A stretch of 64,000 nucleotides of DNA, taken from the NCBI GenBank assembly GCA_013387205.1, contig WARV01000010.1:765-64764 (forward strand), written 5' to 3'. Shown piece by piece: positions 2,080-52,900 of this stretch (its first letter is position 1; every line of letters begins with the position of its first letter). This stretch comes from Patescibacteria group bacterium. Lineage in GTDB: Bacteria > Patescibacteriota > Doudnabacteria > UBA920. Made by a program: the position numbers and the translations under genes. The notes beneath the pieces were generated by a model, which did not search any database, was not told where the DNA came from, and saw nothing but the letters and a program-made list of their open reading frames with translations.

Positions 2080-2985
2080 TTATTTTTGAGTAAATACCTG
2101 ATAGAAGTGTAAATAATTTTGGCCAATTTGGGAAGCGGCTGTTTCCCTGTCTAGCTTTTTATCCCTAAAATCAGCCAAAACATCCCAAAAGATAGTTCGG
2201 CCAATAGCAAAGCCAACCACGCCTACTACTTGTTTGCCCGCGTTAAGCCATCTTTCTACATGCTCATTGCTTTCCCCTCTTCCTAAGACCACGACAGATA
2301 CATTTTCGCGGCCATCAGACTTGGCCTGAATCACTACTGCTTGATAATCATCCGATTTTTCCATGCCTTCAATTTTCCAAATATCAGGTTCGACTCCGGC
2401 ATCCTGCAGTTGCCTTATCATTTCAACGGTTAAATTCGGCCTTACTTCCAAATCGAACCTCTGTTTGTCGTCTGCCACGCCTGCCAATTGCAGAGCTGTC
2501 GGCAAAATCAGCGGCTCGATTAAAAATTTATGGCCATTTTTGTGGGAATAATCGCTTAGCTGTTTTAATTTTTCCGCCTGCCTTTTGTTGAGCTGTTCGT
2601 CGCCTTGCGGGTTATATCTTACCAATGCTTTGGTAAAAGCAGGTTTGTATTTTTCAATGTGTTTTCCAAAATCCATGCCATACTGAAAATCAAATTCTTC
2701 CGCCCCGCTGGTTTCCGAAGTCAAAATGGTCAAAAAACCGTTTTCCTTGGCATCCTTTAAGACCTTATCACCGAATTCTTCCTCAACGAGCAAACCGGCT
2801 CCGTCTTTAGGCACACCCATCTCCACGCCTTTTTTAAATCCTTCATAAATTAAAAACTTATAATCACTGATGGTTTGCTTCTGCTCTTCGCTAAGTTTCC
2901 CTTCCCACCCGAACATCTTTTTTATAAAAGACGCGCGGTGGTCAAATGCTAAAATATACAAAGGTTTTTTATATCCGATATCCAT
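2080..2985 (-). CDS. class I aldolase-like protein (DUF2090 / LacD tagatose-bisphosphate aldolase-like)
   Basis: 301 aa; the N-terminal LYILAFDHR motif resembles DUF2090/LacD-type aldolases. Assignment from memory only. Confidence 0.4.
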   Translation of the reverse strand: MDIGYKKPLYILAFDHRASFIKKMFGWEGKLSEEQKQTISDYKFLIYEGFKKGVEMGVPKDGAGLLVEEEFGDKVLKDAKENGFLTILTSETSGAEEFDFQYGMDFGKHIEKYKPAFTKALVRYNPQGDEQLNKRQAEKLKQLSDYSHKNGHKFLIEPLILPTALQLAGVADDKQRFDLEVRPNLTVEMIRQLQDAGVEPDIWKIEGMEKSDDYQAVVIQAKSDGRENVSVVVLGRGESNEHVERWLNAGKQVVGVVGFAIGRTIFWDVLADFRDKKLDRETAASQIGQNYLHFYQVFTQK

Positions 2986-2992
2986 ATATTTA

Positions 2993-5065
2993 CTAAATAT
3001 TTTCTTTTACTATTTTTATAATTGCATTCTTGTCTATTTCTTCGTAAGCCAAAAGCTCGTCTGGCTTGCCGCTCTTGGGTTCTTTTTTTACGGCAAGGGA
3101 TACCACTTTTACCTCTTCTCCTGGCAAGGAGAAGGTGCCGAAGGCGGATGAGGTCGAATCATTACTGCTAGTTCGACCTCTCTGTCCCTGCGGGACATCT
3201 CCCCTCGCCAGGGGAGAAGGAACACAAAGAGCGGAAAGCACCGCCTCGCCGAGCCCGCCTTCTAAGTGATGGTCTTCAACTGTAATTATTGCTTTGGTTT
3301 CCAGCGCGGCTTTTTTAATTGTTTCTATATCAATTGGCTTAATGCTGTATAGATCTATCACGCGGATGTTAATATTTTCTTTTTGCAGTTCCTCGTAAGC
3401 AGACAGCGCTTCATGCAAAGTTATGCCGGCACCAATTACCGTGATTTGATCAGTATCCGATGATCTTAGAGTACATGCCCCCCCGATCCTAAATTCATGA
3501 TGAATTAATTTTTGTTCATTTTTGTCATTTTCGTCGTTTTCGTCGTTTTTGTCATTTGTGTACAATATTTTCGTTTCTTTTCTGGTTGTCCTAATATATA
3601 CCAAGCCGTCGTGCCCTGCTGCGGCTGCCACTAATTTTTCGGTTGAAACGGCATCAGAAGGATACAACACAACCGATCCGATTAGCGAACGGAACATGGC
3701 AATATCTTCAAGGCCCATTTGGCTTACCCCATCTTCGCCAATAGACACTCCTGCGTGAGAGCCGCAAACTTTGATATTGCTATGGGCATACTGGCTCATG
3801 CGAACCTGGTCGTAAGCACGGGACAAAAACGCGGCAAAAGTGGACACGAACGGGATTTTGCCGCGGCGGGCAAAACCCATAGCGGCTCCAACCATATTTT
3901 GCTCGGCAATATACATTTCAAAAAACCTGTCCGGCGCGACTTTCTTAAAAGCATCGGAATAAGTTGAATTGGAAACTTCGGCATCAAGCACCACCATATT
4001 CGGATAAGCATCCGCTAAATTTGCCAAAGCATTGCCATAAGCTTTTCTTGTCGCTGTCGGCTTTTCGTAATTTGAAAAATTAATATCACCTGCTGCAATT
4101 CTCCCCTCCTGTAAAGGAGGGGTGGCTGCGTTAGCAGACGGGGTGGTAGATAATTGTTCTGGAATTGCCACCTGACCAACAATATTTTTATCAACATCCC
4201 CTAATTCTTGCAACGCGCGATTTAAATCCTCGGCCGACAACGGCTTTCCATGCCATCCGTCCTTGTCTTCCAAAAACGACACACCTTTGCCTTTTACAGT
4301 TTTTGCGATTATCATTGTAGGACGACCGTCCTGTAGCGGGCGGATAGTATCCGCCCCTACAGCCATTTCCAAAGCCTTATTTATCTGCTCAAAATCATGC
4401 CCGTCAATAACCATGGTTTTCCAGCCAAAAGACTCAACCCGCTTTTGGTAGGTGTCTGTGTCCCAACCAAGCATGGTTTCCCCTCTCTGGCCCAAACGAT
4501 TGCAATCCAAAATTCCTATCAAATTATTCAGATGGTAATGCGAAGCAGCCTGCAAAGCTTCCCACACGCTGCCTTCGGCCATTTCACTGTCGCCAAGCAT
4601 GACGTAAGTTTTATATGATAATTTATCAAGTTTGGCATTAAGCGCCATGCCAAGCCCGACCGATAAACCTTGGCCTAAAGATCCTGTAGGCACTTCGGTA
4701 TACGGAAAAGCCAAAGTCGGATGCCCCTCCAAACGCGAACCAAACTTTCGCAGTGTCATCAGTTCTTCTGGATTGATTGCGCTCTGTAGCGGGCGGATAC
4801 TATCCGCCCCTACACCTGCTGTTTTTCCTGCTACCGCATATAGTGAATACAAAACAGGCGCTGCATGCCCTTTGGACAGAATAAACCGGTCGTTATTTGC
4901 ATACTCGGGATTATCTAAATCTGCCTTGAAAAATCCATTAAAGAATAAAGCGGTCAATAAATCTGCCGCTGACATAGCCGAAGTCGGATGCCCGCTGCCT
5001 GCTTTCGTGGTAGAAGTTAAAGAATAGTAACGGATTAGCTTGGCTAATTTTTGCAAGTCTTGCAT
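2993..5065 (-). CDS. tkt: transketolase
   Basis: N-terminal SGHPTSAMSAADL and GHAAP thiamine-diphosphate motifs; pyrimidine-binding and C-terminal domains present. Carries several in-frame inserts (see findings). Confidence 0.9.
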   Translation of the reverse strand: MQDLQKLAKLIRYYSLTSTTKAGSGHPTSAMSAADLLTALFFNGFFKADLDNPEYANNDRFILSKGHAAPVLYSLYAVAGKTAGVGADSIRPLQSAINPEELMTLRKFGSRLEGHPTLAFPYTEVPTGSLGQGLSVGLGMALNAKLDKLSYKTYVMLGDSEMAEGSVWEALQAASHYHLNNLIGILDCNRLGQRGETMLGWDTDTYQKRVESFGWKTMVIDGHDFEQINKALEMAVGADTIRPLQDGRPTMIIAKTVKGKGVSFLEDKDGWHGKPLSAEDLNRALQELGDVDKNIVGQVAIPEQLSTTPSANAATPPLQEGRIAAGDINFSNYEKPTATRKAYGNALANLADAYPNMVVLDAEVSNSTYSDAFKKVAPDRFFEMYIAEQNMVGAAMGFARRGKIPFVSTFAAFLSRAYDQVRMSQYAHSNIKVCGSHAGVSIGEDGVSQMGLEDIAMFRSLIGSVVLYPSDAVSTEKLVAAAAGHDGLVYIRTTRKETKILYTNDKNDENDENDKNEQKLIHHEFRIGGACTLRSSDTDQITVIGAGITLHEALSAYEELQKENINIRVIDLYSIKPIDIETIKKAALETKAIITVEDHHLEGGLGEAVLSALCVPSPLARGDVPQGQRGRTSSNDSTSSAFGTFSLPGEEVKVVSLAVKKEPKSGKPDELLAYEEIDKNAIIKIVKENI
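4331..4362. repeat. 32 bp GC-rich palindromic mini-element inserted in frame in tkt (copy 1)
   Basis: Sequence ctgtagcgggcggatagtatccgcccctacag; encodes VGADTIRPLQDGR within transketolase. Confidence 0.7.
4784..4814. repeat. 32 bp GC-rich palindromic mini-element inserted in frame in tkt (copy 2)
   Basis: Sequence ctgtagcgggcggatactatccgcccctaca, nearly identical to copy 1 and in the same orientation; encodes GVGADSIRPLQSA. Confidence 0.7.
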
Positions 5066-5134
5066 AATGGAATTCTTAAATTTATTACTTTAATATTATA
5101 CCATCCAACCTAAGTTTCTACGAACTAACACCTC

Positions 5135-5255
5135 TACCATACTTCTACTAAATACTAAAAGGTACTAAATATACTAAATCACATCAAATATACTTAATTG
5201 ATATCACTGCTAGTATATAGCTTTAGTATATTTAGTATTATTTCGTATTTAGTAG
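5135..5255. repeat. family A intergenic palindromic element (termini ctactaaatactaa / ttagtatttagtag)
   Basis: About 120 bp AT-rich element with perfect 14 bp terminal inverted repeats and internal complementary arms; fills the tkt/upstream-gene intergenic gap. Copies also at 18374, 18789, 19758, 32183 and 63707. Confidence 0.7.
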
Positions 5256-5260
5256 AGCTT

Positions 5261-6931
5261 TTAGTATCCGTTAATCCCAAACATGGATTTGGGCAATTCG
5301 AATTTGGAGATAATCCCCTGGTTTTGCTGGTTTCTTTTTAAAAAGACAATATTATAGCCATCCACGAACACCGGCGCCCATAACGGGTCATGAACCCGGC
5401 TGATTAGAAAGCTCTGCGCCCAAGGGGTAAAATCGCGGTGGGAAAAAATTATGACATTAAAATTTTCTTGTCTTTCCAGTTCCTGCCAGGCCTGCGCGTT
5501 ATCCTGGGCCGGGATATAGATTTTCTGCAAAAAATCCACGGAATAAGCTTCCGGGCGGTTATCAACGAAAACTTTTTCTTTGGGGAATAAATGGAAGATT
5601 AAATAACCGCCAATATCGTAGTCGTTAAAAATAGGGCCTTGAATATTATTTTGTTTGATAAATTCAGCCGAAGCATTCACGTAAGGCATTAAGCCAATTC
5701 CCATAGCCGAAGTCTTCTCGGAAAATTTCAGATAGTCGCGGTAGCCGCTGCCTAAAATAATAAGCAGGCAGATTGCAATAAAATACGCGTGACGAATATC
5801 AAGGGGTATCCTTGATCTGATCAAGGATGCCCCTTGATACAACGCATTGATGTTGTAGGCTAGAATAGGGATAATGAATAACCCGAAAAACGGAAAATTA
5901 CGGATGCCGAACACTGCCATCACCGAAACAATAAAAAAAATGGCAAACAGCGGCCAGGAAAATTTTTTCCTTTGGAAAAATATCACCAAAATAAAACTTA
6001 TAACCCCTATTGCCAGCACTGCTTTGAACAAAGAAAAATTCAACCCGGCCGTGTGGTTAAGCCTTTCCAAAAACCGGACGGACTGGTTTTCAACGACCAA
6101 GTAACCGTAGTTGTTAAAAATCTGCAAAGGATAGAGCGCGCCTTTAATGAAGTTAGGATTAACTAGCGCGGCTAAACCAGAGACTATACCAGTCAGCAAT
6201 AAATTCTTATCAAAAATTTCGTAAAAATCGCGGCCGCGATTTTTACGAAATCGGTTGTCTACCAGAGACCTTGTGGCACTGCTTACAAAAAACACAAAAA
6301 TCAGCAGCAAGCCCATAAAAAACCCGATGTGTAAGTTTACCCAAATAAGCATTAATACTGGCAATAAATACAACCATCGTTTTTTAGTTTTATCCGCGTT
6401 TATATCCGCGGCTGCAGTATCAGATCCGCGTGCAATCTGCGGATTATAATACACCCACAGCACAAAGAAAAATATCCCGGTAAAAAGATAGGTAAACATT
6501 TCCGGGCGCACTTCCGCGCGCGTGGCAAACAATGGCATAACCAAAACACTTGCAGCAATAGCTAAAAGCCAGCCGCCCATCTTTTTTGCCAGGAAAAAAT
6601 ACACGGCAAAAGTACTTATGCCGAGCAGGATGTAAAATGCTGACAGGCCGGAAAATCCCAAAATTTTCCATACCAGGAAAAACACCACCCCGCTCCCCCA
6701 GTGGTGGTTGATAAACGAAAAGCCAGGCTCAGTGTAGGAATAAAAATTTGTCTTAAAGATATTTTGAGAAAAACCGGAAAGTATAATTTCCCCATTCTTG
6801 ATATGCCTGCCCAAATCCGCGGTAGTCAAATCTATCTTCTGGGCAAAATAAAGCCCGCACCAAGACAATAGGATGATGACGCCTAAGATTTTAAGGATAT
6901 TTGATATTATTTTGGTTTTACTATTAGCCAT
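5261..6931 (-). CDS. polytopic membrane protein, glycosyltransferase family 39 / PMT_2 (ArnT-like) candidate
   Basis: 556 aa with many predicted TM helices N-terminally and a soluble C-terminal region. Carries an in-frame 42 bp nested palindrome at 5798..5839. Confidence 0.4.
   Translation of the reverse strand: MANSKTKIISNILKILGVIILLSWCGLYFAQKIDLTTADLGRHIKNGEIILSGFSQNIFKTNFYSYTEPGFSFINHHWGSGVVFFLVWKILGFSGLSAFYILLGISTFAVYFFLAKKMGGWLLAIAASVLVMPLFATRAEVRPEMFTYLFTGIFFFVLWVYYNPQIARGSDTAAADINADKTKKRWLYLLPVLMLIWVNLHIGFFMGLLLIFVFFVSSATRSLVDNRFRKNRGRDFYEIFDKNLLLTGIVSGLAALVNPNFIKGALYPLQIFNNYGYLVVENQSVRFLERLNHTAGLNFSLFKAVLAIGVISFILVIFFQRKKFSWPLFAIFFIVSVMAVFGIRNFPFFGLFIIPILAYNINALYQGASLIRSRIPLDIRHAYFIAICLLIILGSGYRDYLKFSEKTSAMGIGLMPYVNASAEFIKQNNIQGPIFNDYDIGGYLIFHLFPKEKVFVDNRPEAYSVDFLQKIYIPAQDNAQAWQELERQENFNVIIFSHRDFTPWAQSFLISRVHDPLWAPVFVDGYNIVFLKRNQQNQGIISKFELPKSMFGINGY
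5798..5839. repeat. 42 bp nested palindrome inserted in frame in the membrane protein gene
   Basis: Sequence atcaaggggtatccttgatc t gatcaaggatgccccttgata; encodes QGASLIRSRIPLDI. Confidence 0.65.
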
Positions 6932-6940
6932 GCCTGCAAA

Positions 6941-7072
6941 TTTCTAATTGACCTAATTAACCTAATTATTCTAAATAAATCCCAAAACCTAATGCCTAAT
7001 TTAGAAATTGGGAATTGGTGCTTGTTTAGGTTAATTAGAAATTAGAATAATTAGAATAATTTTAAATCCGCC
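6941..7072. repeat. family B intergenic low-complexity hairpin element (ctaatta / taggtta / attagaa words; terminus aattgacctaatta)
   Basis: Built from permuted short words arranged as imperfect inverted halves. Related copies at 43774, 44392, 45900, 48691, 51018, 52668 and 62843. Confidence 0.6.
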
Positions 7073-13050: not shown

Positions 13051-13080
13051 ATATTTTTTTATTTTTAATGATTATTTCTA

Positions 13081-13116
13081 TTCCCGGAAAACGAGCGATC
13101 GCTCGTTTTCCGGGAA
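13081..13116. repeat. perfect 36 bp palindrome ttcccggaaaacgagcgatcgctcgttttccgggaa (CGATCG core)
   Basis: Read directly; lies 10 bp 3' of the PaaX-like gene stop. Confidence 0.8.
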
Positions 13117-13126
13117 TGGGTTGGTT

Positions 13127-13681: not shown

Positions 13682-13702
13682 GTTAATCTAGTTAATCTCT
13701 CG

Positions 13703-13738
13703 TTCCCGGATTTCGAGCGATCGCTCGTTTTCCGGGAA
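13703..13738. promoter_or_regulatory. 36 bp near-palindrome ttcccggatttcgagcgatcgctcgttttccgggaa, 22 bp upstream of the paralog-1 start codon (candidate operator)
   Basis: Same arms and core as 13081..13116 with an aaaa->attt change in one arm. Confidence 0.6.
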
Positions 13739-13795
13739 TTGGTTTTTATTTTGATAATTTTAAAAGCACTATCAAAATATGGTAGTGCTTTACTT

Positions 13796-18355: not shown

Positions 18356-18373
18356 AATATTTCTCCGAAATTT

Positions 18374-18456
18374 CTACTAAATACTAATTCTTACTAAAAG
18401 TACTAAATTTTACTTAAATGGCTTTCGTATCTTTAGTACATTTTCGTATTTAGTAG
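18374..18456. repeat. family A palindromic element in the groES-groEL intercistronic gap
   Basis: Termini ctactaaatactaa ... tatttagtagag. Joined to a conserved uucggagaaauAUG RBS segment. Confidence 0.7.
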
Positions 18457-18466
18457 AGATTATTAT

Positions 18467-18772
18467 TTATTCAACTATTGCTAACACATCAGATTCATCC
18501 TTTTCTTTTCCGACGTAAAGAATTTTGTATTCGTTCTTCTTGCCGTCTTCATCCATTTCAACTTCATCGCCGGCATACTTGCCAAACACTACAGTGTCGC
18601 CGACCTTAAGCCCTAAAGAGGCAATTTCGCTGCCGGTCCCCAGTTCCATAATTTTTCCCTGGGCTTTTTTTTCTTTATCTGCAGTGTCCGGCAAAACAAT
18701 CCCGCTCTTGGTTACTTCCTCGCTTGAGAGCTGTTTTACCAGGATCCGGTTTCCTAAAGGTTTTACTTTCAT
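18467..18772 (-). CDS. groS: co-chaperonin GroES
   Basis: 101 aa; canonical GroES. Confidence 0.95.
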   Translation of the reverse strand: MKVKPLGNRILVKQLSSEEVTKSGIVLPDTADKEKKAQGKIMELGTGSEIASLGLKVGDTVVFGKYAGDEVEMDEDGKKNEYKILYVGKEKDESDVLAIVE

Positions 18773-18788
18773 AATTTCTCCGAAATCT

Positions 18789-18899
18789 CTACTAAATACT
18801 AAAAGGTACTAAATATACTAAAATATCATCAAAAAGGCTTAATTGATACCGCTATTGATTTTTGATTTAGTATCTTTAGTATTATTTCGTATTTAGTAG
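18789..18899. repeat. family A palindromic element in the groES 5' UTR
   Basis: Same termini as the other A copies. Confidence 0.7.
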
Positions 18900-18935
18900 A
18901 AGCATTAATTTTCCTAATTTATTTTATAGCAACAC

Positions 18936-19008: not shown

Positions 19009-19747
19009 TATGAATGACAGTTATCAAGACGGCCAAGCTGCCCAAAAATATTTAAAATTCCTGGAGTCAAAAAACGGGAAAATACAGCAAAGCGTACTAA
19101 TTGACGCCCTTTTAAATGCGCTTCCCCAAAACCGGCAGCAAAAAATTTTAGATGCATGCTGCGGCTCTGGCTGGTTGACTTCCCGGCTTTTACAGGATTT
19201 TCCCGAAACTTCAGGCTTTGATTCTTCCAAAGAACTTATTGCTTTTGCCCAAAAAAAATATCCGAACATAAACTTTTCCATTGCCGATGCCGCAAATAAT
19301 CTTCCCTACGAAAAAGATTTTTTTGATGTAGTTATTTTAAACATGGCCGCGCCAGATTTGGAAAACCTGCACCAATCTTTCCAAAACCTTTCCGCCATAC
19401 TAAAAAACAATGGACGTTTTACAATGACCATCCCAAATCCTTATTACACATATCCGGTAGCGGTATGGAAGCGCAGCTTTGCGGATTTTATCCAATTTAA
19501 AAAACCTTCATTAAAAATTCAACTTCCGTATTTCCAGGCGCAGGCAATTGAAAGGGAGTTTGGCAAGGGCAATAAAATTTCTTCCCATTTCTATCCCCTG
19601 TCTTCGTATTTGAATGCGGCAAAAGATGCCGGTTTGAAACTGAAAGAAATTAAAGAAATTAAAAGCGTAATTGATAGCCAAAAATTCGACCTGCAATACC
19701 AGCTCTACAGGTATCCGTTGATATTATTGGTAGAATTTACGAAATAA
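19009..19747 (+). CDS. class I SAM-dependent methyltransferase
   Basis: Motif I ILDACCGSGWLT. The start is probably MNDSYQ; the track ORF starts earlier at 18956. Confidence 0.7.
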
Positions 19748-19757
19748 CCTCTTCTCT

Positions 19758-19868
19758 CTACTAAATACTAAAAAGTACTAAACATACTAAAGCTATATAC
19801 CAGTATTGATATCAGTTAAGTCTATTTGATGATATTTAGTACATTTAGTATTAATTAGTATTTAGTAG
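19758..19868. repeat. family A palindromic element between convergent genes
   Basis: Termini ctactaaatactaa / ttagtatttagtag. Confidence 0.7.
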
Positions 19869-19879
19869 AAAGATTAGTA

Positions 19880-20791
19880 TTATCCAAAAAACATCCTCAA
19901 CAAATCCTGCTGCTTACTTAACGGATGGAATGATAGTTCGTCATCTTTAACCACAATAAACTTTTCCTGGCGGATTTTGGGAAGCTGCCAGCTTTTTAAT
20001 ATTACCTCAAAACTCGCGCCAAACTTGTTATCAAAAATTCTTTCCAAAAATTTCTGGTATCGCGATGCTTTATCCTGGATGCAGAAAAACGTAACATTTG
20101 GAAAAAAAATATTAATCCAGCTTAGGTTTTTCATTTGAAAATCGTAAATAGCGCTGGCAAAAACCAAAGGGCGGAGCTTGGCATATTCCCAAGCCGTGTA
20201 TAAATTCCTAAAGCCATCCATTTGTTTTTGCCCCACTATATAATGGTTCAGGCAGAACCGGTTGGAAATTTTATTCCCATGCCGCCTTAAACCTAAAAAT
20301 TGGAAATAAGCCGTTATCAAAGTCCTTGCCAACCATAAAAATTTGTGAGATACGATAATGAACAAGTCGATATCTGAATTTGGTTTTTGAAATCCCTGTG
20401 CCTGGCTGCCGGTTAAACCTACTCCCCTTATGAACGGAATGAGCCTAAGGCCCGAAATGTATTTCCTGATTAATTTTTCCCTGATAATCCCGTAGCTATA
20501 ATTTTGCAGCCTTTTTTCTACAATTTCCCGCTTTCCCGGCAAATAATAAAATCCTTTATCATTTAAAACTTGGCTGCCGCACTCAGTATCCAAGCATTTT
20601 AAAACATCGCTGATTGATACTTGGCTGGAATTTTGTTGTAGATTAATATCATTTAATTCCCATTGGCTGTCGAGTGAAGTTTTAAGGTCTGTTGTTTCGG
20701 AAATTAAAAAACGATGGAGTTCCAAAAGGGTCAAAGGAGTCTCCATTAAATCAAAAAAACGCAAAGTTGAAAGGATACGATTTTTTAACAT
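19880..20791 (-). CDS. nucleotidyltransferase-domain protein (Pol beta superfamily)
   Basis: G-S-x9-13-D-x-D-like motif GSQAQGFQKPNSDIDLFIIV. Confidence 0.45.
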   Translation of the reverse strand: MLKNRILSTLRFFDLMETPLTLLELHRFLISETTDLKTSLDSQWELNDINLQQNSSQVSISDVLKCLDTECGSQVLNDKGFYYLPGKREIVEKRLQNYSYGIIREKLIRKYISGLRLIPFIRGVGLTGSQAQGFQKPNSDIDLFIIVSHKFLWLARTLITAYFQFLGLRRHGNKISNRFCLNHYIVGQKQMDGFRNLYTAWEYAKLRPLVFASAIYDFQMKNLSWINIFFPNVTFFCIQDKASRYQKFLERIFDNKFGASFEVILKSWQLPKIRQEKFIVVKDDELSFHPLSKQQDLLRMFFG

Positions 20792-22414: not shown

Positions 22415-23407
22415 CTACTTTTGGCATTTCGGGCAAAACGAACCGGTGCGTCCGCCAATCTTCATCGACTGGATTACTGTGCCGCAAACTTTACATTTCT
22501 CCCCTGCCCGGCCGTAAACGAAATGAAATTTTCCCATTTGCCCCCAAGAGCCATCTGTCCTTATAAAATCCCCAACCGACGAGCCCTTAGCTTTAATCGC
22601 CTGCTTTAAAACTTTTTGAATGTTTTGATAAATACCCCTTAATTCTTGATTCTTAATACTTGATACTTTCCTGTCCGGCCTGACTTTGGCATGAAATAAA
22701 ATCTCATCGCTATAAATATTGCCAATCCCCGCCACTACTTTTGGATCCATCAAAACCTGTTTGATTTTCCCCTTCGGACGTTTTTTCACGGCCGTGAAAA
22801 AACGTCCCCATATGAATTCTTTGTTTAACGGCTCGGGGCCGTATTCCGAAAGTTCTCTAACTTGATCAATCTCATTATCGCGCACCAATTTTAAATACCC
22901 AAACTTACGTACGTCGTTAAAATACAAAGTTGATCCATCTGTAAATTTAAATATCACGTGCGTGTGCTTGCTTGGCAACTGGACCAATGGAGCATTAGAT
23001 GAATTAATCAGGCGATATTTTCCACCAGTTTTTTGCCGCAGTTTTTTATCCTCAAAAATAAACTGCCCGGTCATTTTTAAATGTGCCAAAATAGAAAGCG
23101 ATCCGCTTGTCCGACGTAGCCTTGCATTGCCCGCCGAAGCTTTATGCGAAGGCTGGGGCGAAGTTGGAGATAAATCAAAAATCAAAAGTTTGGCCCTGCG
23201 CTTAACCGACAAAATCTTTTTTCCAATCAGCAAATCAGAAAATTTTTTTACCTGGCCATTTTTGACTTTCCTGACATTACTAACGACATCCGGTCCAATT
23301 TGCACCATCTTTGGCGCATTAACAAAAACCGACTTAATAGCCTTGTTTTTTAGCTTTTTATTTAGTTCATTTACAATGGTTTGGACTTCTGGGAGTTCAG
23401 GCATCAA
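22415..23407 (-). CDS. mutM: formamidopyrimidine-DNA glycosylase (Fpg/MutM) with an inserted repeat
   Basis: N-terminal MPELPEVQT; C-terminal zinc finger CKVCG...GRTGSFCPKCQ. An in-frame 26 aa GC-rich insert (SPTSPQPSHKASAGNARLRRTSGSLS) lies at 23086..23165. Confidence 0.85.
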   Translation of the reverse strand: MMPELPEVQTIVNELNKKLKNKAIKSVFVNAPKMVQIGPDVVSNVRKVKNGQVKKFSDLLIGKKILSVKRRAKLLIFDLSPTSPQPSHKASAGNARLRRTSGSLSILAHLKMTGQFIFEDKKLRQKTGGKYRLINSSNAPLVQLPSKHTHVIFKFTDGSTLYFNDVRKFGYLKLVRDNEIDQVRELSEYGPEPLNKEFIWGRFFTAVKKRPKGKIKQVLMDPKVVAGIGNIYSDEILFHAKVRPDRKVSSIKNQELRGIYQNIQKVLKQAIKAKGSSVGDFIRTDGSWGQMGKFHFVYGRAGEKCKVCGTVIQSMKIGGRTGSFCPKCQK

Positions 23408-29675: not shown

Positions 29676-29692
29676 ATATAAACAAAAAAGCG

Positions 29693-29724
29693 TATCAAAA
29701 ATGAGCGGCCGCTCATTTTTGATA
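29693..29724. repeat. perfect 32 bp palindrome tatcaaaaatgagcggccgctcatttttgata (GCGGCCGC core), overlapping the stop of PaaX-like paralog 2
   Basis: Read directly. Confidence 0.8.
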
Positions 29725-30261
29725 CGGTAATTTAAACCTCTCTCTTAATTCCCTATCGTCATCCATCTGGTCCACTCTGATAATCCTGACAAAATCCATT
29801 AACCCTGTTTGTTTTAAATATTCTACTGCATGGCTATTTAAAGGATAGGGACTTATAAAAACACTTGCCTGCAATTTCACAAAATTGTTTTGCTTTAATA
29901 ACCTTCGAAATCTATTCCGTTCCCATTTAAAAGCTTCGGGAATATCAAACATTATCAATCTCCATTTATTATCCCAGGGTATAAAAGCGCGCAATTTTGC
30001 CATCAACATTAAATAATGAAGGTATCCATTCTTTGTTATTCTTAAAAACTTTTTATTGTTTTTCTCTACAACTTCTACATCATTACGTTTTTTTAACCTA
30101 GAGACTACCGTGCGATAATAATCCGGGTCGAAATTTTTAACTCTTCTGCTCCAGGCATATGGTGATTCAAAAGGAACAGGTAACATATGTGCCGCCTCCA
30201 CTAAAAACTGAAGGACACCATCCACTATCGATAAAGTTATGTTTTGAGTTTGTTTTGCCAT
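29713..30261 (-). CDS. winged-HTH + PaaX_C/Cas2-like domain protein (PaaX-like family), paralog 2
   Basis: WRLIMFDIPE...R.RFRRLL...NFVKLQASVFISPYP; paralog of 13127..13681. Confidence 0.5.
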   Translation of the reverse strand: MAKQTQNITLSIVDGVLQFLVEAAHMLPVPFESPYAWSRRVKNFDPDYYRTVVSRLKKRNDVEVVEKNNKKFLRITKNGYLHYLMLMAKLRAFIPWDNKWRLIMFDIPEAFKWERNRFRRLLKQNNFVKLQASVFISPYPLNSHAVEYLKQTGLMDFVRIIRVDQMDDDRELRERFKLPYQK

Positions 30262-30282
30262 ATGGTAATCTTCATTACTCTA

Positions 30283-30318
30283 TGTATCACTTTTGAGCGG
30301 CCGCTCAAAAGTGATACG
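30283..30318. promoter_or_regulatory. perfect 32 bp palindrome tatcacttttgagcggccgctcaaaagtgata, 22 bp upstream of the paralog-2 start (candidate operator)
   Basis: Same outer ends and core as 29693..29724; the inner arm has a compensatory aaaa/cttt change. Confidence 0.6.
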
Positions 30319-30332
30319 TTGTTATTTTAGTT

Positions 30333-32164: not shown

Positions 32165-32182
32165 GATAGTTCTTACATTCTC

Positions 32183-32294
32183 TACTAAATACTAATATAT
32201 ACGAAAGATACTAAAGCTTTATACTAATAGTGATATTAATTAAGTATACTTAGATGATATTTTAGTATATTTAGTACTAATTAGTATTTAGTAG
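32183..32294. repeat. family A palindromic element
   Basis: Termini ctactaaatactaa / ttagtatttagtag. Confidence 0.7.
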
Positions 32295-32299
32295 AAGTA

Positions 32300-32701
32300 T
32301 TAAAGGTTAGTGTTAATTTTTTCCAACTTCCATTCAATCTTGTCGCTGTTCTTTAACTGGTATTGTCCGGCTCCGACCGGCGCCAGCTGGCTGTTTATAT
32401 AAAAGGCCCAAAAGTTTTTGCCGTTTTCCGACATATTACCGTCAATGCCTATTACCATCTCCCCCAGGCCCTGATACGTCTTAGTCTGCACTTGGTGGGT
32501 ACTCTTTAACAAATCCAACGCAGTCGTTCCTTGTTTTACTGCATAATCAGGCTGGTTTAAATTTGAAGCCTGGACAGTCTGGTAAACCTTAATATCCTGG
32601 CTTTGCTGGCTGGTTTGGTTGCCGGGCTGCTTACTGCATCCAGCCGCTGCCAAAAAAATCAGTGATGATAATAAAAAAACCTTAAAGAAAGTTTTTCGCA
32701 T
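32300..32701 (-). CDS. DUF4430-domain lipoprotein (transcobalamin-like fold), tentative
   Basis: Signal peptide plus lipobox LAAAGC; C-terminal GKNFWAFYINSQLAPVGAGQYQLKNSDKIEWKL is typical of DUF4430. Confidence 0.5.
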   Translation of the reverse strand: MRKTFFKVFLLSSLIFLAAAGCSKQPGNQTSQQSQDIKVYQTVQASNLNQPDYAVKQGTTALDLLKSTHQVQTKTYQGLGEMVIGIDGNMSENGKNFWAFYINSQLAPVGAGQYQLKNSDKIEWKLEKINTNL

Positions 32702-43615: not shown

Positions 43616-43773
43616 TAATATCACCTCTTTCTTTAGTATAGACCACTGATACGCAGATAATCGCAGATTACACAGATGCAGTTATCTGCGTCATCAGTGC
43701 AAATCTGTGTATCTGCGGTCTTATTTCTTACCTAACTATAATATATTTCCCGATTTTGGTCAAACGGAACGAG

Positions 43774-43917
43774 AATTAACCTAATTATTCTAATTTCTAA
43801 TTAACCTAAACAAATCCCAATTTCTAACTACCCAATTTCCTAATTTCTGATATTTTAGTCATTGGTTATTAGTCATTGTTTAGACTAATTAGGTCAATTA
43901 GGAATTAGGTTAATTTA
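43774..43917. repeat. family B intergenic element
   Basis: Words ctaatta / taggtta; terminus motif cctaattgacctaattag. Confidence 0.6.
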
Positions 43918-43990
43918 CAAAATATTAATCAATAAAAAAGCCTGCCTTGTAAAGGCAGGCCTTAAAAACCTTCTTATGTTCTATGGAAGA

Positions 43991-44326
43991 CTACTCTCCC
44001 ATATTCTTGCCGCCCATCAGGTGCAAGTGTAAGTGCGGGATAACTTGTCCCCCATCACGCCCTACATTGAATACCAATTTATATCCGGTTTCCGAAACTC
44101 CGTACTTCACGCCCATATCCTTGGCTGTTAAAATCATCTTGCCGACCAAACCAGCCTGAGCAGGATCCAAGTGGCTGACAGAAATAATGTGCTGTTTGGG
44201 AATAACCAACAAATGAACAGGAGCTTTGGGCAAAATATCCTTAATAACAATTAAGTCCTGGTCTTCAAAAAGAATTTGGGATTCAATGGTCCTGTTGATG
44301 ATATTGCAAAATACGCAGTCTTCCAT
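43991..44326 (-). CDS. HIT family protein
   Basis: Histidine triad HLHLHLMGG. Confidence 0.85.
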   Translation of the reverse strand: MEDCVFCNIINRTIESQILFEDQDLIVIKDILPKAPVHLLVIPKQHIISVSHLDPAQAGLVGKMILTAKDMGVKYGVSETGYKLVFNVGRDGGQVIPHLHLHLMGGKNMGE

Positions 44327-44391
44327 GGAAGTTATGTTAATATTAATAGGTTCGTAATTATTTAATAATTATTTTTATTACAAAAATTGCA

Positions 44392-44542
44392 AATTCCTAA
44401 TTATTCTAATTGTTCTAATTGACCCCGGGTCAAGCCCGGGGCAGGCTCTAAATAATGTCTAATGACCCAATGTCTAAAATTTGGATATTAGGATTTAGGA
44501 TTTGTTTAGAAATTAGGTCAATTAGGTTAATTAGAAATTATC
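44392..44542. repeat. family B intergenic element with a GC hairpin core (ccccgggtcaagcccgggg)
   Basis: Read directly. Confidence 0.6.
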
Positions 44543-47265: not shown

Positions 47266-48693
47266 ATGACCAATCCAGACTTAAACAATAACCAGCCAAT
47301 TCGCCCGCCAAAAATTTCAGTAAGCAACACCGCCCAAGTCAGTTTGCTAAAAGGCCAGAAACAAAAACACGGGACCAGGAAAGCGCTTAAGCTTACTTTA
47401 TTGGCCATTTTGGCTGTTATTTTAATTTTGGGCGGAGTTGTTGCAAACCGGGCCGCTAACCTGTCGCAAAAAATCTTTGTCGGCCAAAAGATGACTTTTT
47501 TCCAAAAAATCAAGGATGTGTTTAAAGGAAGCGGCACAAAGCTGGTCGGAGAAGATTTGGGACAGATTAACGTCCTGCTCCTCGGGATCGGCGGCGAAGG
47601 CCACGACGGCCCATACCTTTCCGACACGATGATTTTGGCGCAAATCCGTCCTGATATCGGCCAGGTATCTTTAATTTCTATCCCCCGCGATTACCTGGTC
47701 CAGCTGCCGAACAATTTAGGCAGCAGGAAAATTAACGCGGCGTTTGCCGAAGGCTACTACAAAAATAAGGACTGGAACGAAGCCGGCACTTGGGCCAGGG
47801 AAGCCGTAGAAAAAGTCTCCGGCCAAAAAATCCCTTATTTCGCAGTGGTTGATTTTGCCGGTTTCGAAGATGCCGTCAATAAAGTTGGCGGCGTGGATGT
47901 TAACGTGGAAAGGGATTTTACCGACTACTCCTATCCCGATTCAAAAGACGGTTACTTGCCGCCAGTGACTTTTAAAAAAGGCTTGGAGCACATGGGTGGC
48001 ACGCGCGCTTTGCAGTTTGCCCGCTCCAGGCATGCGGCTGGCCCCGAAGGATCGGATTTTGCCCGCTCCCAGCGCCAGCAAAAAATCATACAGGCTTTCA
48101 AGGACAAAGCAATGAGCATGCAGACTTTGTCTGATCCTTCCAAAGTAAACGGACTGCTTGGAGTTTTTGCCGACCATTTCCACACCAATGTCAGTCCCGG
48201 GGAAATTTTCAGGATTTATAGCCTGGTTAAGGAACACGACATCCAAAATTTCATTTCCATCAGCCTGGATCCCACCACCAAACTCATCTGTCCGCAGATA
48301 CTGCCGGAGAACGGGGCTTACGTACTTACCCCGTGCCCGGGAAAAACAGACCAGGATATTAAAAACTATTTTGCCAATTCTTTTTCCATAGGAAAACTTT
48401 ACCAGGAAAAAAGCATAATCTGGATGTCTACAAGCAATCAGGACAAGGCAGCTTACCAAACAGCTGACCAGAAACTTAAAGACGCCGGGCTGACCGTCTG
48501 GGAACTGCCTTACAAAGGGCCAGTCCTATCGCAAAACGTTTTTTACCAAGCCAACATAAAGCCGGCAACTGCCGAGTTCATAAAGAACACGCTTGGTGCC
48601 ACCGAAGTCAACCTGCCTCCCCCAGGGATGAAAATTGACAAGAGCAAAGTAGATATTATTGTGATACTTGGAGGAGAAGAGCAGAAGAATTAA
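47266..48693 (+). CDS. LCP family protein (LytR-CpsA-Psr)
   Basis: N-terminal TM; LCP core NVLLLGIGGEG...SDTMILAQIRPD...ISIPRD. Confidence 0.85.
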   Translation: MTNPDLNNNQPIRPPKISVSNTAQVSLLKGQKQKHGTRKALKLTLLAILAVILILGGVVANRAANLSQKIFVGQKMTFFQKIKDVFKGSGTKLVGEDLGQINVLLLGIGGEGHDGPYLSDTMILAQIRPDIGQVSLISIPRDYLVQLPNNLGSRKINAAFAEGYYKNKDWNEAGTWAREAVEKVSGQKIPYFAVVDFAGFEDAVNKVGGVDVNVERDFTDYSYPDSKDGYLPPVTFKKGLEHMGGTRALQFARSRHAAGPEGSDFARSQRQQKIIQAFKDKAMSMQTLSDPSKVNGLLGVFADHFHTNVSPGEIFRIYSLVKEHDIQNFISISLDPTTKLICPQILPENGAYVLTPCPGKTDQDIKNYFANSFSIGKLYQEKSIIWMSTSNQDKAAYQTADQKLKDAGLTVWELPYKGPVLSQNVFYQANIKPATAEFIKNTLGATEVNLPPPGMKIDKSKVDIIVILGGEEQKN

Positions 48694-48905
48694 CCTAATT
48701 ATTCTAATTATTATTAACTCATCCTGTCCTTCTCTTTAGCAAAGAGAAGGAACCAGCTTAGCAAGGCTATAATCTAGCTTAGTATGTACTCCCTCTTTAT
48801 CATAAGAGGGAGACAGAGGGAGTTAGTATTAGGAATTAGGAATTGGGATTTGTTTAGTCCGCCAGCTGGCGGAAATTAGGTTAATTAGGTTAATTAGGTC
48901 AATTG
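48691..48905. repeat. composite family B element containing CTCCCTCTTT-loop-AAAGAGGGAG hairpins
   Basis: ctaatta word arms plus internal hairpins ccttctcttt-agca-aagagaagg and ctccctcttt-atcat-aagagggag-acagagggag. Related composites at 51018 and 52668 (the latter inverted). Confidence 0.6.
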
Positions 48906-48948
48906 TTATCAAAGAATTTTAAAGTAAATCATTAACATTATTCATCCC

Positions 48949-51562: not shown

Positions 51563-52669
51563 ATGGTTTCCGAGCCCTCAAAAGAGGCCCTTTGCCTCCA
51601 CACCCTGAATTTATTGCCAGAACTAGGACCAACAAGGCTAAAGGCTTTAAAAAACCGCTTTGAGAACTTTTCTAATGCGTTTTCAGCTTCTTTTAACGAT
51701 TTTATTGATATCGGCTTTGAAAAAACACTGGCTGAAAAAATCACCACGCACCTAAAACAGGCTGATTTGGAAAAAGAAGTGCGAATTTTGTCTGGCGAGA
51801 ATATCAATCTGCTCCCTTTTTGGGACGAGCGCTTCCCCGAACTGCTTTTGGAAATTCCTAAATTCCCTGCATTGCTTTATTATAAAGGAATTATGGAAGA
51901 GCCGGACGAGCTTTGCGTGGCCTGCGTGGGGACAAGGATGATTTCCAATTATGGCCGTATAGTCACCCCCAATATTTTAGACCCTCTTATCGATGCCGGT
52001 GTTACAATTGTTTCCGGCATGGCTTATGGCGTGGACGCGCTGGCCCACCAAAGAACCATAGAAAGAAATAAAAGGACTATTGCGGTTTTGGGCGGAGGGC
52101 TAGACAGCAAAAGCATTTACCCGCGGAACCACGCACTGCTGGCGGAAAGGATTTTGGAATGCGGCGGCGCCATTGTATCCGAATACCCTCCGGGAACACC
52201 GAACTTTAAGCAGCATTTTGTGGCGCGCAACCGGATTATTTCCGGACTCAGCGTTGGAACAATTGTTATTGAATGCGATTTGCAAAGCGGCACGCTGATT
52301 ACCGCCAAGCACGCCCTGGACCAGAACCGTGCGGTTTACGCCGTGCCCGGGCCAATTTATTCCGAAACCAGCAAAGGGCCGAACAACTTAATTAAAATGG
52401 GCGCCAAGCTAATAACCGAGGCTAAGGATATTTTGGATGATTTGAATTTAGAGAATTTGCCCGAAGCCAAACAGAACCAGATGATTTTCGGAGACTCCCC
52501 TGCTGAGACCGCCGTGATAAAAATATTATCTTTTGAACCGCTGCACATTGACGAGCTGGTCAAGCAATCCGGCCTGGAAGCTGGCGAAGTTTCTTCAACG
52601 CTTGTCTTTTTGGAAATGAAAGGAAAAGTCAGAAACCTCGGCGGCCAGCAATATATATTGAGTAGGTAA
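51563..52669 (+). CDS. dprA: DNA processing protein DprA (Smf)
   Basis: Rossmann-like core GMAYGVDALAHQ...AVLGGGLD...ISGLS; C-terminal wHTH. Confidence 0.85.
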   Translation: MVSEPSKEALCLHTLNLLPELGPTRLKALKNRFENFSNAFSASFNDFIDIGFEKTLAEKITTHLKQADLEKEVRILSGENINLLPFWDERFPELLLEIPKFPALLYYKGIMEEPDELCVACVGTRMISNYGRIVTPNILDPLIDAGVTIVSGMAYGVDALAHQRTIERNKRTIAVLGGGLDSKSIYPRNHALLAERILECGGAIVSEYPPGTPNFKQHFVARNRIISGLSVGTIVIECDLQSGTLITAKHALDQNRAVYAVPGPIYSETSKGPNNLIKMGAKLITEAKDILDDLNLENLPEAKQNQMIFGDSPAETAVIKILSFEPLHIDELVKQSGLEAGEVSSTLVFLEMKGKVRNLGGQQYILSR

Positions 52670-52900
52670 ATTGACCTAATTAACCTAATTATTCCTAATT
52701 TCCGCCAGCTGACGGACTAAACAAATCCCAAATCCCAATTCCTAATACTAACTCCCTCTGCCTCCCTCTTTAGAAAAGAGGGAGGACATACTAAGAAAGG
52801 TTGGCTGATATATATCAATAAATCTTACTTAGCAAGTTCCTTCTCTTATTCTTAAGAGAAGGGCAGGATGAGTTAATAATTAGGAATAATTAGGTTAATT
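52668..52900. repeat. composite family B element (inverted relative to the previous two); its terminus abuts the dprA stop
   Basis: Read directly. Confidence 0.6.

Follow-up and report, generated by a model that had tools for sequence, protein, structure and literature searches.

A transketolase gene with five extra segments

The stretch of DNA analysed here (the window) comprises 64,000 nucleotides from a Patescibacteria group bacterium of the Doudnabacteria (contig WARV01000010.1, positions 765 to 64,764) and carries on its minus strand a transketolase gene whose predicted product holds five inserts. Three families of palindromic elements are represented among them, namely a pair of 31-nt sequences of the repetitive extragenic palindrome (REP) type and two so far unclassified families designated F2 and F3, and the inserts together add about 95 residues, or 14% of the protein. 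The gene and its inserts are laid out below, with positions counted from the first base of the window, residues of the protein given as aa, and local confidence in a structural model given as pLDDT (predicted local distance difference test).

2993-5065, minus strand: transketolase coding sequence (CDS), 690 aa, from the list of open reading frames (ORFs); short, human-type architecture
4784-4814, minus strand: REP copy A, encoding VGADSIRPLQ; a GTAG...CTAC palindrome with a 1-nt bulge
4331-4361, minus strand: REP copy B, encoding VGADTIRPLQ, aa 236-245
4100-4147, minus strand: F2 two-hairpin element, 48 nt, sense ACCACCCCGTC-TGCTAACGCA-GCCACCCCTCCTTTACAGGAGGGGAGA, encoding TTPSANAATPPLQEGR
3500-3550, minus strand: AT-rich, low-complexity insert KNDENDENDKNEQKLIH, aa 506-522; GC 0.27, dG -0.9, pLDDT below 50 at 513-516
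3113-3226, minus strand: C-terminal 38-aa insert, aa 614-651, CVPSPLARGDVPQGQRGRTSSNDSTSSAFGTFSLPGEE; the F3 doublet as translated, 114 nt
3172-3220, plus strand (antisense to the gene): F3 unit of subfamily B, TTCGACCTCTCTGTCC-ctgc-GGGACA-TCTCCCCTcgccAGGGGAGA, 49 nt
3112-3160, minus strand: diverged, inverted F3-type unit, TTCGACCTC-ATCC-GCCTTCGGC-AC-CTTCTCCTtgccAGGAGAAG

An earlier note, made from the letters of this DNA, had described four in-frame palindromic mini-insertions in the gene. All are in frame, but they are better counted as a pair of single REPs, an element with two hairpins and an inverted doublet of 114 nt. The palindromes noted at 4331 and 4784 are indeed nearly identical and share their orientation, with a unit of 31 nt rather than the 32 nt assigned to them, and the two shorter hairpins are real, although they had been placed one base too high (3198-3217 and 4103-4122 are correct). 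The peptides that the note had read from the four elements (AVGADTIRPLQDGR, GVGADSIRPLQSA, SPLARGDVPQ and TPPLQEGR) agree with the translation of the ORF, and the claim that every element keeps the frame is borne out by the intact 690-aa ORF. To these can now be added the 38-aa, multi-hairpin extent of the insert surrounding the hairpin at 3198, and the fifth, AT-rich insert.

The ORF at 2993-5065 is intact over 690 aa, alignment columns show all family-invariant residues to be present, and the top solved relative in a search of the PDB is human TKT (E=2.6e-162). A homologue search returned 8000 matches, the best of them from Patescibacteria at 55-65% identity, and those among the closest relatives whose source is named are mostly Candidatus Doudnabacteria; an identical 690-aa protein is encoded in a separate Logan assembly (SRR19769811). 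An AlphaFold2 model built from 68 sequences has a mean pLDDT of 85.5 and a predicted TM-score (pTM) of 0.88, and its pLDDT falls below 50 only at 87-89, 238-243, 310-322, 513-516 and 619-642, five segments that coincide with the five inserts. Given the confidently modelled core and the full set of invariant residues, the enzyme looks functional, with the inserts predicted to form disordered excursions from it.

That these segments are insertions rather than ancestral parts of the protein follows from two comparisons taken together. Alignment with human TKT is gapped at aa ~83-97 (GVGADSIRPLQSAIN), at 236-245, over part of the linker, and at 506-522 and 614-651; and when the 120 best homologues are aligned with MAFFT, the insert segments form columns filled in fewer than 10-30% of sequences, their peptides being found in 0 of the 119 other closest homologues. 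The earlier placement of the elements in loops where other transketolases are shorter is thus upheld by gaps, low-occupancy columns and low pLDDT alike. The note had also named what would overturn an insertion origin, the same peptides at these positions in other lineages' transketolases; the peptides occur in none of the 119 homologues, while unrelated genes of other genomes contain the very same DNA elements.

Six hot spots can be recognised in all, where many of the homologues (606 to 739 aa) bear different inserts. Their inserts resemble translated hairpins (e.g., PSFAKATEGESA, RRSAEALAKE, TPLLEKEG and NPHPNPLPKGEG), and in the three homologues whose DNA was inspected they have a GC content of 0.55-0.69, against 0.40-0.48 for the gene, and are strongly self-complementary, with a dG of -15 to -109 kcal/mol. 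Judged from these sequences, the phenomenon is lineage-wide, related patescibacterial transketolases holding different hairpin inserts in the same hot-spot loops, and there is evidence that orthologues across the lineage have been colonised independently at the same loops, partly by F3. The AT-rich insert differs in that it is non-palindromic and has variant forms in several relatives (P0002, P0007, P0014, P0029 and others); because these variants are common to several relatives, it is an older length polymorphism at a sixth hot spot.

The gene further stands out against the hairpin content of its surroundings. The window contains 34 GC-rich perfect hairpins with a stem of at least 7 bp, compared with 3.4 +/- 1.9 in block shuffles, most of them intergenic and 15 of the 34 in ORFs. 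Four of these 15 fall in the 2 kb of the transketolase gene, where about 0.1 would be expected.

The palindromic families within and beyond the gene

The two REP copies share the sequence CTGTAGCGGGCGGATA[G/C]TATCCGCCCCTACA, lie 453 bp apart in the same orientation and frame, and differ at a single nucleotide. Both can be written as CT-GTAG-C-GGGCGGATA-S-TATCCGCCC-CTAC-A and fold into a 15-bp stem interrupted by a 1-nt bulge, with 6 bp on one side of it and 8-9 bp on the other, at a dG of about -22 to -23 kcal/mol, against a mean of -5.2 for 40-nt windows across the whole window; no copy appeared in 100 shuffles. Copy A lies within a net 15-aa insert (aa 82-96, DNA 4778-4822; pLDDT below 50 at 87-89), and copy B corresponds to a 10-aa gap relative to human TKT (pLDDT below 50 at 238-243). 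Each copy is open in only three of its six frames, and transketolase reads an open one. Both copies have the hallmarks of double-foot REPs, with GT[AG]G at the 5′ foot of the hairpin, C[TC]AC at the 3′ end and a stable, GC-rich stem-loop of 20-40 nt; the extragenic location that is part of the REP definition is absent, both lying inside the transketolase CDS. On these features the pair appears to be of the GTAG double-foot type associated with TnpAREP subclass 2.4. This subclass is group 4 of the RAYTs (tyrosine transposases associated with REPs), a group that Bertels and colleagues are said to have treated in 2017. Members of the subclass go together with double-foot REPs, some of which lie in frame inside the tnpAREP genes themselves (Quentin et al. 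2018, PMC6006769).

The REP core recurs widely. A scan of representative genomes, one per species and not including the source genome, with the pattern GTAG(N)GGGCGGATANTATCCGCCC(N)CTAC returned 109 loci, all of which close with CTAC by design of the pattern. Most belong to gut Clostridia (Oscillospiraceae, Ruminococcus), cultured isolates among them, and the carriers as a whole comprise dozens of metagenome-assembled genomes (MAGs) and three cultured isolates. In the gut Clostridia the core is essentially extragenic, with a median longest open frame of 60 aa (loci with GC <0.5). By contrast, seven of seven patescibacterial loci lie in open frames of at least 167 aa. Four of these hosts, confirmed by Pfam, are SecA (REP peptide VGADTIRPLQ), a Mur ligase (VGADNIRPLQ), ATP synthase delta (VGADSIRPLQ) and ProRS, which bears the element in the opposite orientation and with the peptide RSGRIVSAPT; a further frame, in L035, is 190 aa long. 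CT or TT precedes GTAG in eight of nine patescibacterial copies, and one related genome, CAVVMJ01, holds at least four copies with the exact core.

The remaining two patescibacterial hosts are Y1_Tnp ORFs (L009 and L084; match to PF01797), in which the element sits in frame directly after the HUH motif, as NHVHGIIVIGD-VGADIIRPYK-RPS...SFYDHVIR, so that related genomes contain the REP core together with TnpAREP-like genes. A family profile of these ORFs has E. coli TnpAREP (4ER8, E=4.6e-5) as its best PDB match, a phmmer search with the RAYT-like protein alone giving no PDB match. Many of their 818 homologues are named RayT by the Joint Genome Institute (JGI). Among them, the stretch following the HUH motif is hypervariable, at ~10 to ~70 residues (P0121-P0240), and often has peptides of the GTAG-palindrome type (VGNGLKPFPT, VGAGLKPAPT, VGAGSPRPY, VGATHASPL). 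This variability is consistent with the published feature of subclass 2.4, in a sample that is far larger here. The peptides are lineage-specific and sometimes tandem, as in VGNANNNVNVGNANNNVN and repeated GAASSAPTPV (P0121-P0240).

Three further observations concern the distribution of the core. The exact 27-28-nt core is common to Patescibacteria and ~100 gut Clostridia loci. It also occurs in single MAGs of Spirochaetes, Synergistaceae, Bifidobacteriaceae and Flavobacteriales. At 17 of the 102 non-patescibacterial loci it is flanked by extra, locus-specific inverted repeats, which could reflect either insertion into pre-existing palindromes or the outward growth of a palindrome.

F2 occupies the inter-domain linker of transketolase (pLDDT below 50 at 310-322) and contains the hairpin CCCCTCCT-gtaa-AGGAGGGG at 4103-4122, with an 8-bp stem. 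Related copies were found by blastn-short in the transketolase linker of L113 and at L045 5230-5262, and a peptide signature of the F2 type, TTPS...PPLxxEG, appears in many homologues. The same linker holds an F3 element in a second, unrelated transketolase (L152). Rfam gave no match to F2, nor did any of its 4227 covariance models match at E<=1 anywhere in 2900-5200.

The C-terminal insert is the most elaborate of the five. Its hairpin at 3198-3217, TCTCCCCT-cgcc-AGGGGAGA with an 8-bp stem, is the 3′ hairpin of the F3 unit at 3172-3220, which contains no stop codon in any of the six frames. When 3112-3160 is reverse-complemented, it aligns to this unit, the two forming a head-to-head doublet with a 13-nt spacer. 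The DNA of 3108-3226 folds with -31.2 kcal/mol (z=-6.1) and the RNA of the insert with -52.5 kcal/mol, while alignment with human TKT stops at 613 and restarts at 652, column occupancy is below 10% and pLDDT is below 50 at 619-642. In architecture this inverted doublet of F3 resembles a REPIN, the doublet formed by two inverted REPs.

A 25-nt core of F3 is identical to an in-frame transaldolase insert of another Patescibacterium (L112 16712-16736), and a metagenome scan for the core GGACATCTCCCCTNNNNAGGGGAGA recovered 63 contigs. The consensus consists of ACC[C/T]CTCTGTCC, a variable inner hairpin, GGACA and a hairpin of 8 bp with a 4-nt loop. Of its two subfamilies, A (CCCCTCTGTCC) is found chiefly between genes and B (CCTCTCTGTCC), to which the window's unit belongs, chiefly within long ORFs. 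F3 is found in frame in at least 10 conserved genes, its hosts including transaldolase and, for subfamily B, ribonucleotide reductase, another transketolase, M24 peptidase, RseP, malic enzyme, MiaA and HolB; one M24 peptidase ORF (L150 9165-10061) has two copies. An identical 80-nt variant with a nested inner hairpin occurs in three different genes (L135, L151 and L153) from a single metagenome of peat or soil, an argument for mobility. Rfam searches over 18 F3-bearing loci returned a tRNA only.

Subfamily-B copies within genes measure 41, 44, 50 or 80 nt, all 11 being congruent to 2 modulo 3, as is the one genic copy of subfamily A (47 nt), and the non-genic or ambiguous copies include lengths of 45, 46 and 48 nt. 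This rule fits selection for frame preservation, but it is suggestive rather than conclusive, since only about four independent length variants underlie it. F3 seems at home inside genes. A broader and more tentative idea, which we hold to be possible though short of probable, is that Patescibacteria host a guild of palindromic elements (REPs, F2 and F3) living largely in genes, and that subfamily B of F3 has become adapted to this habitat, as suggested by its freedom from stops in six frames, its length steps in multiples of three, its mostly conserved, housekeeping hosts and its reuse of loop hot spots. If so, F3 would be a new family of mobile elements, and the insertion of elements in frame would contribute much, in a way not previously described, to variation in protein length across the candidate phyla radiation (CPR).

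Origin of the inserts

The explanation that we favour, and regard as quite probable, is that the transketolase gene has been invaded several times by small, non-autonomous hairpin mobile elements of at least three families, whose in-frame survivors were tolerated as loops. The elements are in frame, are inserted relative to orthologues, recur in unrelated genes and genomes, and lie in low-confidence loops of the model. Under such a scheme, small hairpin elements would insert repeatedly, and purifying selection would discard insertions that shift the frame, add stops or strike structured parts of the protein. The survivors would build up in a few permissive surface loops or in the inter-domain linker, which would explain why the same sites are reused by different elements in different lineages, and would be translated as disordered loops of 10-38 residues in a still-functional enzyme. 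Where genes are packed as densely as in a CPR genome, the shortage of room between them would plausibly push survivors into genes.

For the REP pair, a mobiliser can be proposed by analogy. TnpAREP cuts at the CT beside a REP, and GTAG is required (PMC8266576). By the same route, the REP would fold on single-stranded DNA, a Y1/HUH TnpAREP (RAYT) would recognise the GTAG guide together with the hairpin and cut at the flanking CT dinucleotide, and the strand would then be transferred to a new site. A subclass-2.4 TnpAREP is the likely mobiliser, although we only infer this, as the window contains no such gene.

Several points weigh against invasion by mobile elements. No TnpAREP- or RAYT-like gene was detected in the 64-kb window by tblastn with the L009 and L084 proteins, which gave only trivial matches to the REP element itself; F2 and F3 lack the GTAG tag, and neither has a known transposase. 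Even with up to 3 mismatches allowed, the 64 kb contain no third REP copy, the two known ones sharing a single gene, which may reflect local hopping or a low copy number. The REP unit of 31 nt is not a multiple of three. No orthologue above 65% identity was found in the databases searched to mark empty sites, exact boundaries and target sites at the nucleotide level. Finally, we infer rather than observe both the translation of the inserts and their neutrality as loops.

Could the palindromes instead have been made on the spot, through template switching, quasi-palindrome correction, or intragenic duplication followed by gene conversion? Such an origin, which we consider unlikely, would fit the confinement of both REP copies to one gene, 453 bp apart and with no third in 64 kb. 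The Fpg gene of the same window also has a 32-nt perfect palindrome without any change of length relative to solved MutM, so palindromes can form in place, and the locus-specific inverted repeats around 17 of 102 REP copies in other phyla fit palindrome extension. However, the same 27-28-nt core is present in unrelated patescibacterial genes and at ~100 loci of other phyla, F3 and F2 sequences likewise recur in other genes and genomes, and the orthologues lack both arms of each element, whereas snap-back synthesis would supply only one. Local template switching is therefore best kept as a minor alternative that may operate elsewhere in this genome. Improbable as well, in our judgement, is that the hairpins are kept by selection, either as mRNA structures tuning translation, decay or co-translational folding, or as adaptive peptide loops. 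Their sequence, family, orientation, length and very presence vary freely among orthologues at each site, the same elements populate many unrelated proteins and intergenic DNA, and the peptides are predicted to be disordered; in favour of selection, the hairpins are very stable (dG -22 to -52 kcal/mol), REPs outside genes are known to influence termination and the stability of mRNA (PMC3733652), and many orthologues bear inserts at the same six sites, a recurrence that is nevertheless expected from loop tolerance alone.

Two further scenarios would deny the inserts a place in the protein or in the cell. The inserts might be absent from the mature protein, having been excised from the mRNA or skipped by the ribosome. 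Bypass of this kind is exemplified by the GC-rich 'byp' elements of Magnusiomyces mitochondria and by the hop in T4 gene 60, to which GC-rich hairpins in an AT-richer gene bear a superficial likeness. Elements removed in this way would face no frame constraint, yet all the inserts, in this gene as in the homologues, keep the frame and lack stops, the REP copies use open frames only, and genic F3 copies fall into a single length class modulo 3 despite their variable inner parts; this rule argues against bypass or excision, and with no ribozyme or intron match from Rfam in the region, we regard the scenario as very improbable. An assembly artefact or a decaying pseudogene strikes us as scarcely credible. 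The contig does come from a metagenome, and hairpins can disturb assembly, but the identical protein was recovered from an independent Logan assembly, the REP core is present in dozens of MAGs and three cultured isolates, and the ORF is intact, with its invariant residues in place and its core confidently modelled.

If mobile elements did invade the gene, it offers a natural example of selfish hairpin DNA lengthening an essential enzyme without breaking it, and it extends in-frame colonisation of the REP and RPE (Rickettsia palindromic element) type to the CPR, with its tiny, gene-dense genomes and little intergenic space. Such inserts would inflate protein lengths, create spurious 'lineage-specific loops' in CPR proteins, and could mislead alignments, phylogenies and structure predictions. 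Conversely, they could mark the loops of transketolase and other enzymes at which insertion is permitted, and F3 and the REP core shared by Patescibacteria and gut Clostridia provide handles on the spread of such elements.

Several other features of the window and of related genomes deserve mention. The Fpg/MutM gene (22415-23407, minus strand) contains the perfect 32-nt palindrome GGACGTTTTTTCACGGCCGTGAAAAAACGTCC at 22773-22804, encoding GRFFTAVKKRP, which looks like palindromisation in place, with no insertion relative to solved MutM structures. Its N-terminal domain has ~40-55 extra residues compared with MutM and Pfam (~22976-23176), including SPQPSHKASAGNARLRRTSG, which looks like another hairpin-type insert. 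A 556-aa membrane protein without a Pfam match (5261-6931, minus strand) has two strong in-frame palindromes at 5799-5838 and 6213-6252, one of 39 nt (dG -30.5) encoding QGASLIRSRIPLD and one of 34 nt centred on GCGGCCGC and encoding RFRKNRGRDFYEIF. Long, near-perfect intergenic palindromes at 13079-13118, 13701-13740, 29689-29728 and 30281-30320 combine variable A/T-rich arms with a shared centre, either GAGCGGCCGCTC or GAGCGATCGCTC. Similar in this to the palindromes with CGGCCG at their centre that lie within genes, they may act as terminators or represent another class of element. There are also two abundant families of AT-rich intergenic repeats, one of the type TACTAAATACTAAA.../TTTAGTATATTTAGTATT... 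(5130-5270, 18359-18914, 19743-19883, 32167-32309, 63708-63815) and one with a 9-nt period, CTAATTAACCTAATTATTCTAATT (6944-7068, 43772-44539, 48679-48911, 52667-52900, 62829-62974). Repeats of the former, TACTAAATACTAAA, family recur at 85-97% identity in a genome of Candidatus Doudnabacteria (L027), a pointer to the affiliation of the window. In related genomes, small genes of the 23S_rRNA_IVP/bAvd type (L111 6843-7253 and 9376-9738; L113 11358-11723) are interspersed in a cluster of transketolase, fructose-bisphosphatase (FBPase), aldolase and transaldolase genes, whereas the corresponding syntenic region of the window lacks them. Proteins of this type are four-helix bundles, often tied to diversity-generating retroelements.

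Relation to known palindromic elements

Insertions of RPEs in frame within genes were reportedly described by Ogata in 2002. The earlier note had likened the transketolase inserts to these elements, and the likeness holds as far as it concerns in-frame palindromes in functional genes that are tolerated as loops or surface segments (Ogata et al. 2002; Claverie & Ogata 2003). With its 114 nt, the F3 doublet moreover has the size of an RPE, whereas the single REPs here have only 31 nt. It does not extend to membership of the family, given that RPEs have no sequence relation to the present elements and belong to an unrelated host lineage. RPE-4 and RPE-6 have been equated with CGTC REPs, which are tagged by CGTC and have a stem of 8-9 bp with A-T pairs at its start, a loop of 4-5 nt and CCA as a tail (PMC3733652). 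Compared by inspection with this published description, the REP pair is excluded from RPE-4, RPE-6 and the CGTC REPs by its GTAG tag. Neither F2 nor F3 agrees with the description in tag and stem, and the two short hairpins are thus not of the CGTC-REP, RPE-4 or RPE-6 type either; that of F3 is preceded by GACA and has a stem that starts with T-A and then C-G.

A closer parallel is found in the intragenic, in-frame GTAG and CGTC REPs, double hits per ORF included, reported by Di Nocera et al. (2013, PMC3733652). These lie whole within ORFs and in frame, as singles, dimers or clusters of ~10-80 aa, sometimes twice per ORF, and have been read as neutral additions to loops and linkers. Their hosts are Proteobacteria, Cyanobacteria, Chloroflexi and bacteria of the Planctomycetes-Verrucomicrobia-Chlamydiae (PVC) group, with a bias to replication and repair genes, in contrast to the CPR host, the transketolase target and the three element families in one gene described here. 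The F3 doublet, for its part, shares with REPINs (Bertels & Rainey 2011, PMC3116915) the arrangement of two inverted units around a short spacer in one long hairpin, but differs in that its units are of the F3 type rather than GTAG REPs, one of them is diverged, and the whole lies within a CDS, without a known RAYT.

The REP pair itself is most like the double-foot GTAG REPs, with a hairpin that has GTAG at its foot and ends 3′ in CTAC, ~30 nt in length, a bulged stem and a CT or TT flank. Classical REPs number hundreds of copies, against an apparently low copy number here. Compared with the elements of Quentin et al. (PMC6006769), whose main text does not feature Patescibacteria, the present copies reside in a gene of central metabolism. 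We found no paper on in-frame palindromic insertions in CPR bacteria or Patescibacteria, though one may still exist. In kind, then, the phenomenon is already known from intragenic REPs and RPEs; what is new here is the CPR/Patescibacteria host, the load carried by one enzyme, and the evidence for independent colonisation of the same loops across its orthologues.

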